49,541 bases of DNA, from contig JAFULU010000283.1 in assembly GCA_017483125.1 (NCBI GenBank), positions 1 to 49,541 of the forward strand. The letters run 5' to 3'. Below the pieces are notes generated by a model, which saw only the letters and a program-made list of their open reading frames with translations, was not told the origin of the DNA and ran no database searches. A program made the position numbers and the translations under genes. Positions within the stretch are counted from its first letter, which is position 1, and each line of letters opens with the position of its first letter. This DNA is from Clostridia bacterium (lineage in GTDB: Bacteria; Bacillota; Clostridia; Oscillospirales; CAG-272). Below, one piece after another: positions 5,114 through 45,531 of this stretch.

Positions 5114-7141
5114 ATGCCAACAAAATCGGTCAAAATCACCGAAACGTCTACCTCCATCCGCGAAGCCCTCAGCACCGAGGCGGCTCCCGACACCCTCCGC
5201 GAGACCCCTCTCTCCCCCGAGGCCGAGGCCCTGCTTCCCCACCGCCGCGAGCTGGACGAGTTCCTCTTCCACGAGGGTACCGCCCGCCACGCCTACACCT
5301 ATCTGGGCGCTCACGCCGAGGTGGGCGAGGACGGGGCAGAGCGGGTGATCTTCCGCGTCTGGGCTCCCCATGCCAAGGGGGTATCGGTCGTGGGCTCCTT
5401 CACCGACTGGGATCAGGGCATCCCCATGACCCGCGCCACCCAAAGCGGCATCTTCATGCTGGTTCTTGAGGGAGACAAGGTGCCCGACGGCTCTGTCTAT
5501 AAGTACCGCGTCACCGCCGCCGACGGGCGGGTGCTCCTCCACGCCGACCCCTACGGCCGTGCCATGGAGTGTCCCCCCGAGACCGCCACCCGTTTCTTCC
5601 GCGAGAAGCCCTTCAAGTGGCACGACCGCGGTTGGCTCCGTCAACGCGCCAAGCGCAAGAAGGACGGCCGCAAGTACCCCATGAACATCTACGAGGTCCA
5701 CGCGGGCTCCTGGAAATACGGAGCCGACGGCAAGCCTCTTTCCTACCGCCGGCTGGCGGACGAGCTGGCCCCCTACCTCAAGCAGATGGGCTTTACCCAC
5801 GTGGAGCTGCTCCCCGTCATGGAGCATCCCTTCGGAGGCTCCTGGGGCTACCAGGTCTGCGGCTACTACGCCCCCACCGCCCGCTACGGCGACCCCGACG
5901 ATTTCCGCGCCTTCGTGGACATCATGCACAACGCGGGGCTGGGTGTCATTCTGGACTGGGTCCCCGCCCACTTCCCCAAGGATGCCCACGGCCTGTACCG
6001 CTTTGACGGACAACCTCTTTATGAGTATGAGGACCCCACCAGGCAGGAGAACCGCGGCTGGGGCACCTGCTGCTTCGATGTGGGCAAGAAGGAGGTCATC
6101 TCCTTCCTCATGTCCAACGCCTACTACTGGGTGGAGGAGTTCCACGCCGACGGTCTCCGTGTGGATGCCGTGGCCTCCATGCTCTACCTCAACTACGACC
6201 GCCAGCCCGGAGAGTGGCACCCCAACAAGAACGGCGGCTATCAGAACCTGGAGGCGGTGGCCTTCTTCCGCACCCTCAACGAGGGCCTGCGCGAGGATCA
6301 CCCCGACATCATGACCATCGCCGAGGAGTCCACCATGTGGCCCCACATCACCGACTTTTCCGAGGAGGGCCTGGGCTTCACCTACAAGTGGAACATGGGC
6401 TGGATGAACGACACCCTGCGCTACGTCAAGGAGGATCCCATCTTCCGCAAGCACCACCACGGCCATCTGACCCACATCCCCTCCTACGCCTTCATCGAGA
6501 ACTACGTCCTCCCCATCTCCCACGACGAGGTGGTGCATCTGAAAAAGTCCTTTTTGGACAAGATGCCCGGGGACTACTGGCGGAAGTTCGCGGGGGACCG
6601 CGTCTTCGCCGCCTGGATGATGACCCACCCCGGAGCCAAGCTCTGGTTCATGGGCTGTGAGATCGGCCAGTTCGCCGAGTGGAGCGAGATGCGCCAGCTG
6701 GACTGGCATCTTTTGGACTACGAATACCACGCCAAGCTCCAGCACTACTATGCCGCTCTGAATAATCTCTACCTCTCCACCCCCGCCCTGTGGGACGAGT
6801 TCACCGACACCCCCGAAAAGTCCTTTGAGTGGCTGGAGAAGCACGATGCCGACCGCTCTCTCATCGCCTTCCGACGGGTCTCCCGTGAGGGCAAGGACGT
6901 CACCGTCGTATTGAACTTCACCCCCATGACCCATGTGGATCATCGCATGAACGTCCCCCTGCCCGGAAAGTACCGCGAGATCTTCAACTCCGATGCGCAG
7001 GAGTTCGGCGGTAGCGGGGTCCTCAACACGGGTGTGCTGGAGGCCTTCCCCGTGGAGGGCAACTTCCTGCACATGGTGCGGATGAACGTACCGCCCTTGG
7101 GATGCGTGATACTGGAAAGAATTGACGAGGACGGCGAGTAA
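5114..7141 (+). CDS. glgB: 1,4-alpha-glucan branching enzyme
   Basis: 675 aa. GH13 signatures DWVPAHF, GLRVDAV, AEEST and SHDEVVH. The N-terminal CBM48-like region is typical of GlgB. Confidence 0.92.
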   Translation: MPTKSVKITETSTSIREALSTEAAPDTLRETPLSPEAEALLPHRRELDEFLFHEGTARHAYTYLGAHAEVGEDGAERVIFRVWAPHAKGVSVVGSFTDWDQGIPMTRATQSGIFMLVLEGDKVPDGSVYKYRVTAADGRVLLHADPYGRAMECPPETATRFFREKPFKWHDRGWLRQRAKRKKDGRKYPMNIYEVHAGSWKYGADGKPLSYRRLADELAPYLKQMGFTHVELLPVMEHPFGGSWGYQVCGYYAPTARYGDPDDFRAFVDIMHNAGLGVILDWVPAHFPKDAHGLYRFDGQPLYEYEDPTRQENRGWGTCCFDVGKKEVISFLMSNAYYWVEEFHADGLRVDAVASMLYLNYDRQPGEWHPNKNGGYQNLEAVAFFRTLNEGLREDHPDIMTIAEESTMWPHITDFSEEGLGFTYKWNMGWMNDTLRYVKEDPIFRKHHHGHLTHIPSYAFIENYVLPISHDEVVHLKKSFLDKMPGDYWRKFAGDRVFAAWMMTHPGAKLWFMGCEIGQFAEWSEMRQLDWHLLDYEYHAKLQHYYAALNNLYLSTPALWDEFTDTPEKSFEWLEKHDADRSLIAFRRVSREGKDVTVVLNFTPMTHVDHRMNVPLPGKYREIFNSDAQEFGGSGVLNTGVLEAFPVEGNFLHMVRMNVPPLGCVILERIDEDGE

Positions 7142-7317: not shown

Positions 7318-8502
7318 ATGATCTTCAGAAAGAAAGAGTGCGTGGCGATGCTGCTGGCCGGCGGTCAGGGCTCCCGTCTTTACGCTCTCACCAAGAAAGT
7401 CGCCAAGCCCGCCGTGCGCTTTGGCGGCAAGTACCGCATCATCGATTTCCCGCTGTCCAACTGCGTGAACTCGGGCATCGACACCGTGGGCGTGCTGACC
7501 CAGTACCAGCCCCTTGTGCTCAACGAGTACATCGGTAACGGACTCCCCTGGGATCTGGACCGCTCCTTTGGCGGAGTCAAGATCCTGCCCCCCTACCAGG
7601 GTCAGAAGAGCGCCGACTGGTACAAGGGTACCGCCAACGCCATCTACCAGAACCTGGCCTTCATCAACCGCTACGACGCCGACTACGTCTTGATCCTCTC
7701 GGGCGACCACATCTACAAGATGGACTACGACAAGATGCTGGACTTCCACAAGGCCAAGGGCGCCGACTGCACCATCGCCGTCATCGACGTGCCCATCGAG
7801 GAGGCCAGCCGCTTCGGTATCATGAGCACCAATCCCGACGGCTCCATCTACAAGTTCTCCGAGAAGCCCAAGAACCCCGACAGCACCAACGCGTCCATGG
7901 GTATCTACATCTTCAACCGCAAGAAGCTCTGCGACTACCTCATCGCCGACGAGGCGGATCCCAACTCCTCCAACGACTTCGGTAAGAACATCATCCCCAA
8001 TATGCTGGCCGCAGGCGAGAAGATGTTCGCTTACCCCTTCGAGGGATACTGGAAGGACGTCGGAACCATCTCCTCTCTGTGGGAGGCCAACATGGATCTG
8101 CTGGGAGATCAGCCCGTTCTGGATCTGTCGGGCAACGACTGGCGCATCTTCGCCCGTCACTCCGCCTCGGCTCCCCAGTTCGTGGGAGCTCGCGCGTCCA
8201 TTGAGAACTGCTACATAACCGAGGGCTGTGAGATCTACGGCACCGTCAAGAATTCGGTGATCGGTCCCGGCGTCAAGGTCATGGCAGGCGCGCACGTAGA
8301 GGACTGCGTCCTCATGGGTGACTGCGTGATCGAGGCGGGCGCTACAGTCCAGTACGCCATCATTGACTCCGACGTCACCGTCGGCGCGGGCGCCACCGTG
8401 GGCGCTCCCAGAAGCACGGGTGCCGAGATCGCCGTGGTCGGCGAGGGCATTACCATCGCGGCAGGCGCTACGGTTGAGCCCGGCGCCATGCTGTCTGAGT
8501 AA
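7318..8502 (+). CDS. glgC: glucose-1-phosphate adenylyltransferase
   Basis: 394 aa. N-terminal LAGGQGSRL nucleotidyl-transferase motif, [10 protein letters not shown], and a C-terminal left-handed beta-helix region. AAAGGAGG RBS. Confidence 0.92.
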
Positions 8503-8516
8503 AGGAGGACACGAAC

Positions 8517-9650
8517 ATGACCGCAGCAGGATTGATTTTCGCCAATATCCACGACCAGAGCATCCCCGAGCTGACTCGTGTACGCTCCATGGCCTCTGTG
8601 CCCTTCGGTTGCCGCTACCGCCTCATTGACTTCACCCTGTCCAACATGGTGAATTCCGGCATCAACCGCATCGGCCTCATCACCCACCACAACTATCAGT
8701 CCCTTCTCGACCACATCGGTACGGGTAAGGACTGGGATCTGGCCCGCCGCTCGGGCGGTATCAAGCTGATCCCCCCCTACATCACCGCCTACGATCAGGG
8801 CACCCGCATCAAGTCCCCCAGCCACCGTCTGGAGGCTCTCTTTGGTGCCAAGGACTTCATCGCCCGCTGCAACGAGGACTACTTCGTGCTGTCCGACTGC
8901 GACATCATCTGCAACATTGATCTGTCCGAGGTCATCGAGGCTCACGCCGCGTCGGGTGCCGACATCACCTTCGTCACCAAGCGGATGGACGCCGCCGCCA
9001 TGCATCTGGCCGAGCAGGTCTCCATCATCGCCGCTGACGAGGACGGTAAGGTCACCGACTTTACCCGCGCCCAGCCCACCGAGGGTATGGTGAACCTCTA
9101 CACCAACATCATGGTGGTCAGCCGCGAGTACCTGCTCACCATCCTGGCCGCCGCCTCCGCCCACGGCTACCGCTCCTTCTTCGCCGACGTCATCGTTCCC
9201 TCCCTGGGCACCGCCAACTTCCGCGCCTACGAGTACGACGGCTGGTACGCCTACATCGGCTCCCTGGAGGGCTACTTCGCCTCCTCCATGGATATGCTGA
9301 CCCAGGAGGCCCGCGAGGGTCTGTTCGCCGTCAAGAACCGCCCCGTGCTGACCAAGGTCCGCAACTCGGCTCCCACCAAGTACAAGGAGGGCGCCGACGT
9401 CAAGAACTCCTTCATCGCCGACGGCTGTGTCATCGAGGGCACGGTGGAGAACTCCATCCTGTTCCGCGGCGTTAAGGTGGGTAAGGGCACCGTGGTCAAG
9501 AACTCCATCCTCATGCAGGACACCTACACCGGCTCTGACGTCACCCTGAACTGCGTCATCACCGACAAGGACGTCACCATCCGCGACGGCCGCCACCTGT
9601 CGGGTCACAAGACCATGCCCTTCTACGTGGGCAAGGGCGGCAGCGTCTGA
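8517..9650 (+). CDS. glgD: glucose-1-phosphate adenylyltransferase regulatory subunit GlgD
   Basis: 377-aa GlgC paralogue that lacks the GGxGxRL motif (FANIHDQSIPELT instead). It sits immediately downstream of glgC, as in Firmicutes glgCD pairs. Confidence 0.85.
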   Translation: MTAAGLIFANIHDQSIPELTRVRSMASVPFGCRYRLIDFTLSNMVNSGINRIGLITHHNYQSLLDHIGTGKDWDLARRSGGIKLIPPYITAYDQGTRIKSPSHRLEALFGAKDFIARCNEDYFVLSDCDIICNIDLSEVIEAHAASGADITFVTKRMDAAAMHLAEQVSIIAADEDGKVTDFTRAQPTEGMVNLYTNIMVVSREYLLTILAAASAHGYRSFFADVIVPSLGTANFRAYEYDGWYAYIGSLEGYFASSMDMLTQEAREGLFAVKNRPVLTKVRNSAPTKYKEGADVKNSFIADGCVIEGTVENSILFRGVKVGKGTVVKNSILMQDTYTGSDVTLNCVITDKDVTIRDGRHLSGHKTMPFYVGKGGSV

Positions 9651-9656
9651 TAGCTC

Positions 9657-9888
9657 GCCATTCCCCGCGCAAACTGCGCGGGGAATGGCTAAATGCAAAA
9701 TGCAAAGTGCAAAATGCAAAATCAAGGAACGAGAGAACAACTGCGCAGGGCTTAACGGAAACCATGTTATTCTTTTGGGGAACAATACTTTTTGGGATAT
9801 TATCCCACAAAATATTACCATAAAATCGGCTTTCGCGTCAGCGAAAGGCTTCCACAATTTTGCATTTTGCATTTTGCCTTTTGCAGTT
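9657..9888. repeat. A-type palindromic heptamer-array element, (AATGCAA)n, preceded by a 14-bp GC hairpin
   Basis: Hairpin GCCATTCCCCGCGC-AAACT-GCGCGGGGAATGGC (9657-9689). Array AAATGCAAAATGCAAAGTGCAAAATGCAAAAT (9691-9722). Unique core. Inverse array ATTTTGCATTTTGCATTTTGCCTTTTGCAG (about 9857-9888). The core is homologous to that of 45278-45531 in the opposite orientation. Confidence 0.85.
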
Positions 9889-9920
9889 TCATACCATTTC
9901 ATTTTTCGGAGGATACATAT

Positions 9921-11387
9921 ATGTCTGAACAGCTTTCCCCCAAGAAGATCCTCTTCGTCGGCGCCGAGGTCATGCCCTTCGCCGCTACGGGCGGTCTTGG
10001 CGACGTCATGGGCTCCTTGCCCGCCGCTCTCCGCGCCAAGTACGGTGAGGACGCCGACGTCCGCGTGATCTGCCCTCTGTACGACAAGATCCCCGCCGCC
10101 ACCGTGGAGGCCATGAAGACCGAGGCCGTCTTCAACCTTCAGCTTTCGTGGCGCAACCAGTACTGCGGTATCCGCTCGCTGGTGAAGGACAACGTCACCT
10201 TCTACTTCGTGGACAACGAGTACTACTTCAAGAGAGGTGCTCTGTACGGTCACTTTGACGACGGCGAGCGCTACGCCTACTTCTGCCGCGCCGTGTTGGA
10301 GATGATGGAGAAGCTGGATTACTACCCCGACATTCTCCACGCCAACGACTGGCAGTCGGCTCTGTCAGTGGTCTACCTCAAGACCGAGTTCGGCTACCGC
10401 AACGAGAAGTACGCCGCCATCAAGACGGTGTTCACCATCCACAACATTGAGTATCAGGGTCAGTACGACTTCGCCGCCCTGCAGGACGTCTTCGGCATCG
10501 GTGCCGAGCACTACACCCTCATGGCCTACGACGGCTGTATCAACCTGGCCAAGGCCGCCGTGGAGTGCGCCGACCGCGTCACCACCGTGTCGCCCACCTA
10601 CGCCCAGGAGATCATGACCCCCACCTACTCCCACCGCCTCCACTTCATCCTGGCCCGCCACAGCCGCAAGGTCAGCGGTATCCTGAACGGCATTGACCAG
10701 GTCTACTACAACCCCGCCGCCGACAAGGAGATCCCCTTTGAGTTCACCGCCGAGGACACCACGGGCAAGACCCGTGACAAGCTGGCCTTCCAGAAGGAGT
10801 ACGGTCTTCCCGAGGACGCCGACGCCCCCATCATGGCGGTCATCTCCCGCCTCGCCGCCCACAAGGGCGTGGACATCATCGCGGGTATGCTCCGTCACGT
10901 GCTGGAGATCCACCCCAAGGCACAGTTCGTGGTGCTGGGTACGGGCGAGGGACAGTACGAGAGCTACTTCCGTCAGCTGGAGCGTGACTTCCCCGAGAGA
11001 GTCCGCGCCTTCATCACCTACAACCGCGCCCTGTCCAAGAAGATCTACGCCGCCGCTGACATCTTCCTCATGCCCTCCAAGTCCGAGCCCTGCGGTCTGT
11101 CCCAGATGATTGCCTGCCGCTACGGTACTGTCCCCGTGGTGCGTGAGACGGGCGGTCTGTACGACTCCATCAAGCCCTACTACGAGGACTGCAACGGTGC
11201 CCACGGCAACGGCTTCACCTTCGCCAACTACGAGGCCTCCGAGCTGGAGGAGCGCACCTGCGCCGCGCTGGAGCTGTATGAGCGCGAGCCCGAGAAGTTC
11301 GCCGCTCTGCGGTATCGCGCCCTGACCTCTGATTTCTCTTGGGATGCTTCGGCTGAGAAGTATATGGAGATGTATCAGAATATGTAA
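9921..11387 (+). CDS. glgA: glycogen synthase (ADP-glucose type)
   Basis: MSEQLSPKKILFVGAEVMPFAATGGLGDV is the canonical GlgA N-terminus (KxGGL motif). The ORF-track start at 9792 would translate the repeat element. The ATG at 9921 has GGAGGA upstream. Confidence 0.92.
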   Translation: MSEQLSPKKILFVGAEVMPFAATGGLGDVMGSLPAALRAKYGEDADVRVICPLYDKIPAATVEAMKTEAVFNLQLSWRNQYCGIRSLVKDNVTFYFVDNEYYFKRGALYGHFDDGERYAYFCRAVLEMMEKLDYYPDILHANDWQSALSVVYLKTEFGYRNEKYAAIKTVFTIHNIEYQGQYDFAALQDVFGIGAEHYTLMAYDGCINLAKAAVECADRVTTVSPTYAQEIMTPTYSHRLHFILARHSRKVSGILNGIDQVYYNPAADKEIPFEFTAEDTTGKTRDKLAFQKEYGLPEDADAPIMAVISRLAAHKGVDIIAGMLRHVLEIHPKAQFVVLGTGEGQYESYFRQLERDFPERVRAFITYNRALSKKIYAAADIFLMPSKSEPCGLSQMIACRYGTVPVVRETGGLYDSIKPYYEDCNGAHGNGFTFANYEASELEERTCAALELYEREPEKFAALRYRALTSDFSWDASAEKYMEMYQNM

Positions 11388-23521: not shown

Positions 23522-23546
23522 GGGAGGCTCCTTTCGGGAATGCAAA

Positions 23547-23581
23547 ATTTAAAATGCAAAATGCAAGATCAAGAAACGGGG
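23547..23581. repeat. truncated A-type heptamer array
   Basis: GAATGCAAAATTTAAAATGCAAAATGCAAGATCAAGAAACGGGG parallels the left arm plus core start of the 9691-9735 copy (…AAATGCAAAATCAAGGAACGAGAG). There is no matching inverse arm. Confidence 0.6.
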
Positions 23582-23582
23582 G

Positions 23583-23930
23583 TTAAATTTGGGTTTATCG
23601 GTGGGTTTGCTACCCGTAGCGAATCGCGAATTACTATGTACGCGTTCTCCCTCACCCGCCTGCGGGTGGGAGCTCCCTCCCGGAGGGAGCCTTGGGGCGC
23701 GGGGCAAAATCACTTATCGGGCAACAGATTTCCGCGGGGCAAGGTATGAGGCCCCCTCCGGGAGGGGTAGCGAAGCGGCAACGCGGTAGTGAATGGCCGC
23801 CTGTGGCGGGCAGAGCCGCGTTGTGACCGACCCGCAGGGAGACCTCCCGCGAAGCGGTGGGGGAGCCTGCGTACATCGGGACCATGATATTCTTTCGGTT
23901 TTTCAAACCAACCGCTAAATGGCAATTTAC
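23583..23930. repeat. 348-bp TIR-bounded element with a GC-rich, multiply nested hairpin core (candidate structured RNA or MITE)
   Basis: Left end TTAAATTTGGGTTTATCGGTGGGTTTG. Right end CAAACCAACCGCTAAATGGCAATTTAC (23904-23930) is its imperfect inverse. A long-range stem pairs 23636-23659 with 23854-23876, and several helices nest inside. Confidence 0.6.
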
Positions 23931-45277: not shown

Positions 45278-45531
45278 TTCAAATTTGGGTTTATCGGGTA
45301 GTTTGAGAATGCAAAATGCAAAATGTAAAATGCAAAATGAATGAAGCCTTTTGCTTACGCAAAAGCCAATCTTTATGGTAAAGTTTGTAATTCAAAAACC
45401 GAAAAGTCAGTGTCCCCTATAGGATAATCATTTCTGTGTAGGACACGTCACCCCGTCTCTCGTTCTCTGATTTTGCATTTTGAATTTTGCATTTTGCATT
45501 TCGGGCGCAGCCCGACAGACCCCAATTTGAA
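45278..45531. repeat. complete A-type element: TIRs, inverted (AATGCAA)n arrays and a unique core
   Basis: TTCAAATTTGGGTTTATCGGG (45278-45298) against CCCGACAGACCCCAATTTGAA (45511-45531). Arrays at 45307-45343 and 45469-45501. Core hairpin at 45346-45367. Confidence 0.85.

Follow-up and report, generated by a model that had tools for sequence, protein, structure and literature searches.

A heptamer-array palindromic repeat in the glgD-glgA spacer of a gut Clostridia bacterium, and the apparent preservation of pairing across its family

Introduction

Several described families of small repeats resemble the element that we analyze here, and each also differs from it. The Correia elements (NEMIS), which are MITEs of Neisseria, are small, non-coding, and intergenic, have long inverted ends, and occur in many copies whose presence varies between relatives (PMC2649163, PMC10969869); all of these properties are shared by our element. 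Correia elements are also co-transcribed with their neighbors as hairpins, which holds for the present element by prediction only, and they bind RNase III, by which they are either cleaved or protected (PMC2649163, PMC10969869). However, Correia elements end in a fixed inverted repeat of 26 nt and have a TA duplication along with an IHF site (PMC2649163, PMC10969869), whereas our element has tandem 7-base arrays with a variable number of units and at least four unit sequences, shows no duplication, and belongs to an unrelated lineage (gut Clostridia).

The REP/BIME/REPIN palindromes associated with RAYT (Y1) are likewise intergenic and kept for their structure; they carry a short motif beside a hairpin, form inverted doublets, and host other insertions (PMC3116915, PMC3333891, PMC3733652). 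The inverted doublet of a REPIN has its counterpart in a second type of the present repeat, the AATTCGT-type, which has two inverted end modules; furthermore, in sister species GTAG-type REP-like palindromes occupy the same spacer that our element occupies in the genome studied here. The differences are that our element is AT-rich and lacks the GTAG/CGTC tag, that no Y1 gene is found in five genomes, and that heptamer arrays are not a REP feature.

The pneumococcal BOX elements are similar in that they are built from modules, among them internal tandem units whose number varies, and form a stable hairpin, and SPRITE elements are similar in being terminator-like; neither has a known mobilizing enzyme, and both occur in clusters and inserted into each other (PMC10969869). 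However, the internal unit of BOX is ~45 nt long, in contrast to the 7-nt terminal array described here, and the sequences are unrelated. As outlined for the Chunjie MITE of Geobacter uraniireducens, a small repeat can reside within an operon and leave the gene order intact (PMC2516098, cited in PMC10969869); in the same outline, Chunjie has ordinary terminal inverted repeats with direct repeats and is a recent insertion (PMC2516098, cited in PMC10969869), whereas the copy described here is old and is found in several species.

Finally, intergenic arrays of directly repeated heptamers have been described: TAACTGA in Beggiatoaceae, cyanobacteria, and Bacteroidetes (PMC4679880), GGGAATC in Xanthomonas, and GGGGAYT in Nostoc (PMC4692102). 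These are short, non-coding 7-base arrays that lie near start or stop codons in distant phyla, and four units are preferred in our arrays, too. However, they are single direct arrays that have been read as G-quadruplex or leader motifs (PMC4679880, PMC4692102), whereas the arrays of our element are inverted pairs that surround a core and can form a hairpin. A literature search did not find the array sequence in print, and a recent review of MITEs describes no element with heptamer arrays.

Here, we describe a copy of this element that is located between glgD and glgA, that is, inside the glycogen synthesis genes of an uncultured Clostridia bacterium, and we compare it with its relatives within the genome and between species. 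The window is the 49,541-nt stretch of DNA that contains it. The genome to which the window belongs (G000) comprises 3.5 Mb in 384 contigs, has 58% G+C, and is 98.9% complete; our own codon-model calls give a map of 2605 genes (~83% coding).

Results

An intercistronic element behind glgD

The window encodes glgB (5114-7141), glgC (7318-8502), glgD (8517-9650), and glgA (9921-11387), each identified by an NCBIfam match; the spacer between glgD and glgA has a length of 270 nt (9651-9920). Directly after the glgD stop codon, the + strand has a GC hairpin (9657-9689) with a perfect 15-bp stem, a 3-nt loop, and a folding energy of ~-32 kcal/mol. The initial annotation of this DNA had described a 14-bp hairpin without a U-tract: the stem is one pair longer, and the T-tract is indeed missing, the next sequence being CTAAATGC. 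We rejected the GC hairpin as a part of the repeat family described below; it is specific to this locus, with a single occurrence in the genome, and is found at the glg locus alone. It is kept in five species, with one compensatory change (T:A to A:T, that is, U:A to A:U) in one of these (G013).

No terminator is predicted on the + strand between 9550 and 10000, where no GC-rich stem is followed by the immediate U-tract of an intrinsic terminator, and no promoter-like (sigma-70) site is predicted in the spacer on either strand. Because the spacer has neither a predicted promoter nor a predicted terminator, it is plausible that the element is transcribed within the glg mRNA. On the minus strand of the spacer, the core hairpin of the element is the sole terminator-like site that was scored.

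The spacer ends with a T-rich leader (9889-9920, + strand) that contains the glgA RBS, GGAGG (9908-9912), ahead of the ATG at 9921; the leader is 83% identical among orthologs, and the RBS is invariant. In four of four orthologs, RNAalifold predicts that the GGAG of this RBS is paired with UUCC (9893-9896 region; it lies within CATTCCATTTC in the orthologs); this helix has only 4 bp and may be a chance pairing. We also considered a 531-aa ORF that starts at TTG 9792, crosses the right half of the element, and continues in frame into glgA. This ORF was rejected as the gene because the GlgA profile begins at residue 9 of the 488-aa protein, because a conserved GGAGG site precedes ATG 9921 by 9 nt, and because the lengths of orthologous spacers differ by non-multiples of 3.

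Between the GC hairpin and the leader, positions 9690-9888 are a genuine copy (~199 nt) of a genome-wide repeat with the organization (AAATGCA)n, a ~134-nt core, and (TGCATTT)n; all of the sequences quoted in the initial annotation are present at their positions. On the + strand, the left arm (9690-9722) contains ~4.5 units of AAATGCA, including one unit with an A-to-G variant; the variable left core (9723-9815) begins with ATCAAGGAACG and includes a local palindrome (9784-9816); and a TACCAT motif (9816-9821) marks the conserved start of the end module. The core hairpin (9828-9849; GG-CTTTCGC-GTCA-GCGAAAG-GC) has a 7-bp stem (CTTTCGC at 9830-9836 and GCGAAAG at 9841-9847) and a 4-nt loop; the pair 9834:9843, which covaries in the family, is the C:G variant in this copy. 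The right arm (9857-9888) is an inverse array, (ATTTTGC)n, with two variant units, and pairs with 9690-9722. The arms have a length of 39 nt and are 85% complementary; the whole element is predicted to fold with ~-70 kcal/mol as RNA from either strand, with a duplex of ~33 bp.

A 17-mer of the array has 16 matches in the window (0 expected from 100 shuffles). The copy with which the initial annotation had compared the glg copy (45308-45500, and 45279-45530 with its outer motifs) is a long (L-type) copy on the minus strand; it has outer 19-nt end motifs, TCAAATTTGGGTTTATCGG, and the T:A stem CTTTTGC/GCAAAAG instead of CTTTCGC/GCGAAAG, so the reported opposite orientation and stem difference are both confirmed. 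That annotation had also named a result that would undermine its interpretation, namely, that the two copies are recent duplicates with random differences. We find this scarcely credible: the copies do share ancestry, and nothing more, but they are only ~74% identical and belong to different subfamilies, the glg copy is older than the split of at least four species, and the stem positions vary almost only pairwise.

The window also contains a single A-type left array followed by the first 15 nt of a core (23539-23600), abutting the RBS of a minus-strand gene; the array is cut off by another repeat that begins with the 19-nt end motif, and the same arrangement is found on two other contigs of the genome (C232 and C95).

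Copies elsewhere in the genome

The genome contains 135 arrays. Forty-four pairs of arrays make up complete copies, the cores of which measure 114-196 nt; another 45 arrays are single, 31 of these at contig ends, where the assembly breaks; all of the complete copies are intergenic even though ~83% of the genome is coding. The number of units per array shows a strong preference for about four (four units in 86 arrays, three in 35, two in 13, and five in one). Four types of heptamer are found: AAAATGC (95 arrays, 44 inverted pairs), AATTACG (20 arrays, seven pairs), AAGATAC (29 arrays, two pairs), and AATAATG (nine arrays, two pairs); for the last three, inverted partners were seen in few copies. 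Six copies that are 91-98% identical, with unrelated flanks, constitute a younger sub-lineage.

The copies have two forms: the long (L-type) copies are framed by the outer 19-nt inverted motif TCAAATTTGGGTTTATCGG, and the short copies (e.g., the glg copy) end with the arrays. There are 510 occurrences of the 19-nt motif in the genome, and it encloses many unrelated internal sequences as well. Ten units with a length of 39-41 nt (e.g., C309:3402-3442) contain nothing but the two outer end motifs, back to back (TCAAATTTGGGTTTATCGCTCTGCGATAAACCCAAATTTGA); such units may represent empty frames or footprints. Within the core, conservation is confined to an end module, in which TACCAT is followed, after 6-9 nt, by a hairpin (7-10 bp, loop of 3-4 nt) and then by a T-rich linker and the array. 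The module is common to the A-type and AATTCGT-type elements, which have different array units; in both, TACCAT is located 6-9 nt before the hairpin.

The configuration of the genes that flank the copies is near random ((+,+) in seven cases, (-,-) in seven, divergent in six, and convergent in four). The hairpin side of the short copies faces a start codon 16 times and a stop codon seven times; after removal of orthologs, the counts are ~10 and 6, and the difference is not significant. Where the flanking genes are co-directional, many short copies take up the entire gap, at a distance of 0-41 nt from the stop codon and 18-55 nt from the next start codon. A long copy (C221:4082-4316) lies between a consensus TTGACA-17-TATAAT promoter and the RBS of the downstream gene; its ortholog (L102, G011:C28) has a 20-nt leader in place of the element. 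Because the C221 copy lies between a promoter and an RBS, copies are tolerated inside transcripts.

This placement bears on the proposal, in our opinion a very unlikely one, that the end module is a small bidirectional unit resembling an intrinsic terminator (A-rich tract, hairpin, T-rich tract; cf. the pneumococcal SPRITE), the hairpin being kept for termination. The core hairpin does have ATAAAAT upstream and the T-rich linker and array downstream, the minus strand scored as terminator-like (CTTTCGCTGACGCGAAAG then CCGATTTTAT), the stem is conserved and the loop is free, and the same arrays flank GC-rich hairpins in distant phyla. However, the stem is short and weak (predicted at -9 to -12.5 kcal/mol), the U-tract on the sense strand of the glg copy is poor and nothing is called on the + strand, and copies of both orientations are found in 5' leaders and in the gaps that separate co-directional genes, where efficient terminators would not be tolerated.

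We also attach very little probability to a DNA-level module for protein binding or promoter activity, in which the arrays would provide iterated sites or outward TTGCAT -35 boxes, with TACCAT as a -10 box, for the neighboring genes. Copies located no more than 60 nt from start codons are compatible with such a module, as is the copy that fills a divergent intergenic region (C188:26907-27164, 17 and 19 nt from the two start codons), the core of which contains a good extended -10 promoter (TTGCGG-17-TGGTACAAT) where other copies have TACCAT. However, neither strand of the glg spacer has a promoter-like site, the consensus has no -35 box at the right spacing from TACCAT, and the copies show no orientation bias; also, if half-sites were tolerated independently, mixed T..G and C..A stems would be predicted, and these are rare.

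Paired positions across copies and species

In 51 distinct aligned copies, the pair in the core hairpin that corresponds to 9834:9843 is U:A in 33, C:G in 13, U:G in four, and other in one; that is, only five copies have an unpaired or wobble intermediate, and the compensatory C:G/T:A change noticed in the initial annotation from two copies is real. In a covariation check over the aligned copies, none of 500 column shuffles reached the observed covariation score or the observed count of double-changed cells, shifted pairings of the hairpin had far lower scores, and the stem positions vary almost only in pairs. Additional double changes are found elsewhere in the hairpin. In a second pair, a G.G mismatch is replaced by T:A in five copies; a hairpin variant, GTC..GAC, contains further double changes; and a third stem variant, ACATTTTGCC/GGCAAAATGT, which is present with both ATTTTGC and ATTACGA arrays, has two extra double changes relative to the common stem (G:C to A:T and C:G to A:T). 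The arms of the family are 95% paired across 1,622 positions. These alignments show that the family preserves the pairing ability of the arms and the small hairpin rather than their exact sequence.

The C:G pair is confined to short copies without the outer 19-nt motif (11 S-type copies and 0 of 32 L-type copies), and in a tree constructed from the rest of the core it is located mostly in one clade, with a few T:A copies nested. Because of this restriction, the number of independent switches between C:G and T:A is small, perhaps two to four. The covariation at this pair is real, though it is largely a marker of the older short subfamily.

The initial annotation had interpreted the changed pair as evidence for selection on structure, in RNA or in single-stranded DNA. 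The alignments support conservation of pairing at the level of the family; the cited pair itself represents few independent events and does not separate RNA from single-stranded DNA, a cruciform, or conversion. Mismatches in the arms show no wobble bias (10 G:T vs 12 A:C), and no orientation bias of the copies relative to genes was found; for these reasons RNA is not favored over DNA as the level at which pairing matters. The strand-symmetric results fit a DNA-level constraint, that is, hairpin or cruciform intermediates, inversion of and conversion between the arms, or conversion from other copies. Nevertheless, because the element is palindromic, a T-rich array is always upstream of the adjacent start codon in either orientation of the core, so these results are still compatible with a role in RNA.

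The arrangement of GC hairpin plus element occurs at the same glg site in related species; it is intact in G000, G011, G010, and G013 and disrupted in G015. In the four intact copies, the mean identity is 95% for the left array and 80% for the right array, and all 14 bases of the core hairpin stem are invariant; the loop is different in each (GTCA, AACA, CCAA, and CAGA), and the mean identity of the left core is 45%. For comparison, the 4-fold degenerate sites of the flanking glgD and glgA are 66-86% identical. Judged against these sites, the paired parts of the glg copy are held above the neutral level but the unpaired core is not; this is unexpected for a dead selfish insert and points to host-level selection or continuing conversion. 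The consensus fold that RNAalifold predicts from the four spacers contains the long arm helix as well as both hairpins (GC and core); within the arms, one A:U pair is replaced by G:C in G011 and by G:U in G013.

In another proposal, the glg copy would be a domesticated cis-acting RNA, transcribed inside glgBCDA, in which the arm duplex and hairpin serve as an intercistronic processing, stabilizing, or attenuating signal (e.g., by RNase III cleavage) that uncouples glgBCD from glgA, with the pairing kept by host-level selection; we give this a lower but real chance. The arrays and stem that exceed the 4-fold sites in four species as the rest of the core drifts, and the compensatory changes within the orthologous glg copies themselves, are as this proposal predicts. 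It would also accommodate the retention of some stem-loop directly after glgD in every lineage, the short copies that often span an entire co-directional gap, the symmetry that places a T-rich array just upstream of the adjacent start codon in any orientation of the core, and the presence of an RNase III gene in the genome; cleavage or protection of Correia elements by RNase III provides a precedent (PMC2649163, PMC10969869). However, an excess of G:U pairs is seen on neither strand, no Rfam family matches (the best match has 25 bits vs a threshold of 55, so all are far below threshold), and sister species lack the element at the glg site.

The spacers of these sister species differ widely. 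In the comparison of the window with L068-L083, the A-type element plus GC hairpin is found in five species, a spacer of 72 nt in two, and a spacer of 10 nt in two; in nine species, GTAGGG...CCCTAC REP-like palindromes are located behind two other types of hairpin. The glgD-glgA spacer is, then, a hot spot for differing content. When a tree is built from the flanking 830 nt, the two main types of spacer do not separate but are interleaved, so the vertical history is uncertain; this pattern suggests replacement or recombination at the glg site rather than a single gain. The 747-nt spacer of G015 (L071, contig C4) contains an A-type element that is split by an insertion; the insertion includes a GTAGGGGAGGGG REP-like pair and a small, hydrophobic-looking ORF.

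Class, turnover, and reach of the family

Between matching element ends in G000, we found no transposase that belongs to the element; the assembly has 384 contigs, so its absence is not proven. An IS30-family parent was considered and rejected. A 1331-bp unit (C3:99-1429) that is bounded by the 19-nt motif encodes an HTH_38 + rve transposase; however, this gene is a nested insertion and not the parent, because it has inverted repeats of its own (CAAGTGCAACA) and interrupts a GCCTTCCCC-type repeat. The inserted transposase has 334 aa, its DNA has 46% G+C, and it resides inside a GCCTTCCCC..GGGGAAGG-type repeat with 19-nt end motifs; it is the sole copy in the genome. Mobilization by a RAYT/Y1 enzyme was also rejected, PF01797 having no match in five genomes that are all element-rich (G000, G011, G013, G043, and G016), as was a link to phage, the exact array being absent from viral contigs. 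Neither short nor long copies are flanked by a visible target-site duplication, and none is seen when filled sites are compared with empty ones; for short copies, no clean insertion boundary was seen either.

In several respects the element resembles a MITE: it is small and non-coding, has many dispersed copies with terminal inverted repeats (to which the long copies add the 19-nt outer inverted repeat), and is polymorphic in presence between relatives; a target-site duplication and a parent IS with matching ends are not found. As a REP or REPIN it would have a GTAG/CGTC tag at the foot of a 20-40-nt GC-rich palindrome and a cognate RAYT gene; neither is found, and instead TACCAT is separated by 6-9 nt from a stem that is AT-rich and has 7-10 bp. 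Overall, we class the element as an undescribed MITE/REP-like structured repeat that lacks two defining features of MITEs and two of REPs.

Within one genus (uncultured fecal 'Eubacteriales/Clostridia' MAGs), the element is matched in 11 of 24 sampled species; it is found in none of 16 other families of the order. Empty orthologous sites were identified for the copies on C23, C67, and C100 as well as for the C46, C221, and C360 loci. Sites that are filled in two species can differ in content. At one orthologous site (L031 vs C121), one species has an A-type element and the other a GATACAA-type element. At another (G000:C46:2195-2443 vs L108, G011:C25), both species have an A-type element, with different cores in opposite orientations; the same site in G042, G043, and G017 has short unrelated spacers, that of G043 resembling a remnant of the end motif. 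At a third (G000:C360:2224-2472 vs L109, G005:C102), the two species have flanks with 96-99% identity and the same outer 19-nt frames, but the internal cassette is wholly different, with the heptamer hairpin in G000 and a GCCTTCCCC-type sequence in G005; this site is empty in G016 (L103, G016:C430). Overall, the copies of the family are dispersed and strictly confined to intergenic DNA, their occurrence among species is patchy, and they vary in presence, orientation, and content at fixed sites.

The array is not restricted to this genus. An exact 26-mer of the array occurs on long contigs from Acidobacteriota, Planctomycetota, Bacteroidota, Verrucomicrobiota, a Psychromonas genome, and some archaea (the chance expectation for one 26-mer in 596 Gb is ~3e-4). 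In at least seven of 16 loci from distant phyla, the inverse array is found within 27-131 nt, on the other side of a host-like, GC-rich core. Loci in which (AAATGCA)n...(TGCATTT)n surround short GC-rich cores include L001, L025, L042, L043, L055, L062, and L003; the taxa with inverted arrays are Acidobacteriota, Pirellulales, Vicinamibacterales, Bacteroidales, and a Psychromonas genome. Two of the archaeal loci (L011 and L046) differ in that the array is seemingly within a small ORF.

The occurrence of the same heptad palindrome in distant phyla is unexplained by a genus-level selfish element. One proposal that would cover it is that inverted heptad arrays are a cross-phylum structured class, with folded arms that are recognized by shared machinery; in these gut bacteria, the arrays would be exchanged as cassettes at fixed intergenic and operon sites through recombination, without an element-encoded transposase, and fixed copies such as that at glg would be kept by the host as intercistronic signals. 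We consider this broader proposal doubtful and offer it as a speculation.

Discussion

We hold, with confidence that is about evenly balanced, that the glg copy is an old, fixed short form of a lineage-restricted family of non-coding palindromic repeats, the pairing of which is kept because the family spreads or turns over by way of folded DNA, with any effect on glgA as a by-product. According to this explanation, spread or turnover would proceed through a DNA hairpin or cruciform, so that copies able to pair would be retained; conversion from arm to arm, and from other copies, may also contribute to the pairing. The arrival of the glg copy between glgD and glgA would predate the divergence of at least five species. 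If the element is read through in the operon transcript, it would form a ~33-bp hairpin (-70 kcal/mol) just ahead of the glgA RBS, and this duplex would be a plausible substrate for the RNase III that is encoded in the genome. Any resulting effect on the expression of glgA would be a by-product and not the reason that the structure is conserved; our best guess is that the glg copy is a tolerated, co-transcribed hairpin.

If the pairing is kept for a reason, the family would represent a new kind of structured repeat in abundant, uncultured gut Clostridia. The copies are located inside operons and in the 5' leaders of ordinary metabolic genes, here those for glycogen synthesis, so they could tune expression. 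The family also poses a mechanistic question, namely, how small palindromic repeats spread, and are swapped at fixed sites, without a recognizable transposase. The glg locus is a practical test case for these questions: the element is old and is found in several species, the flanking genes are well understood, and natural 'alleles' with and without the element are available.
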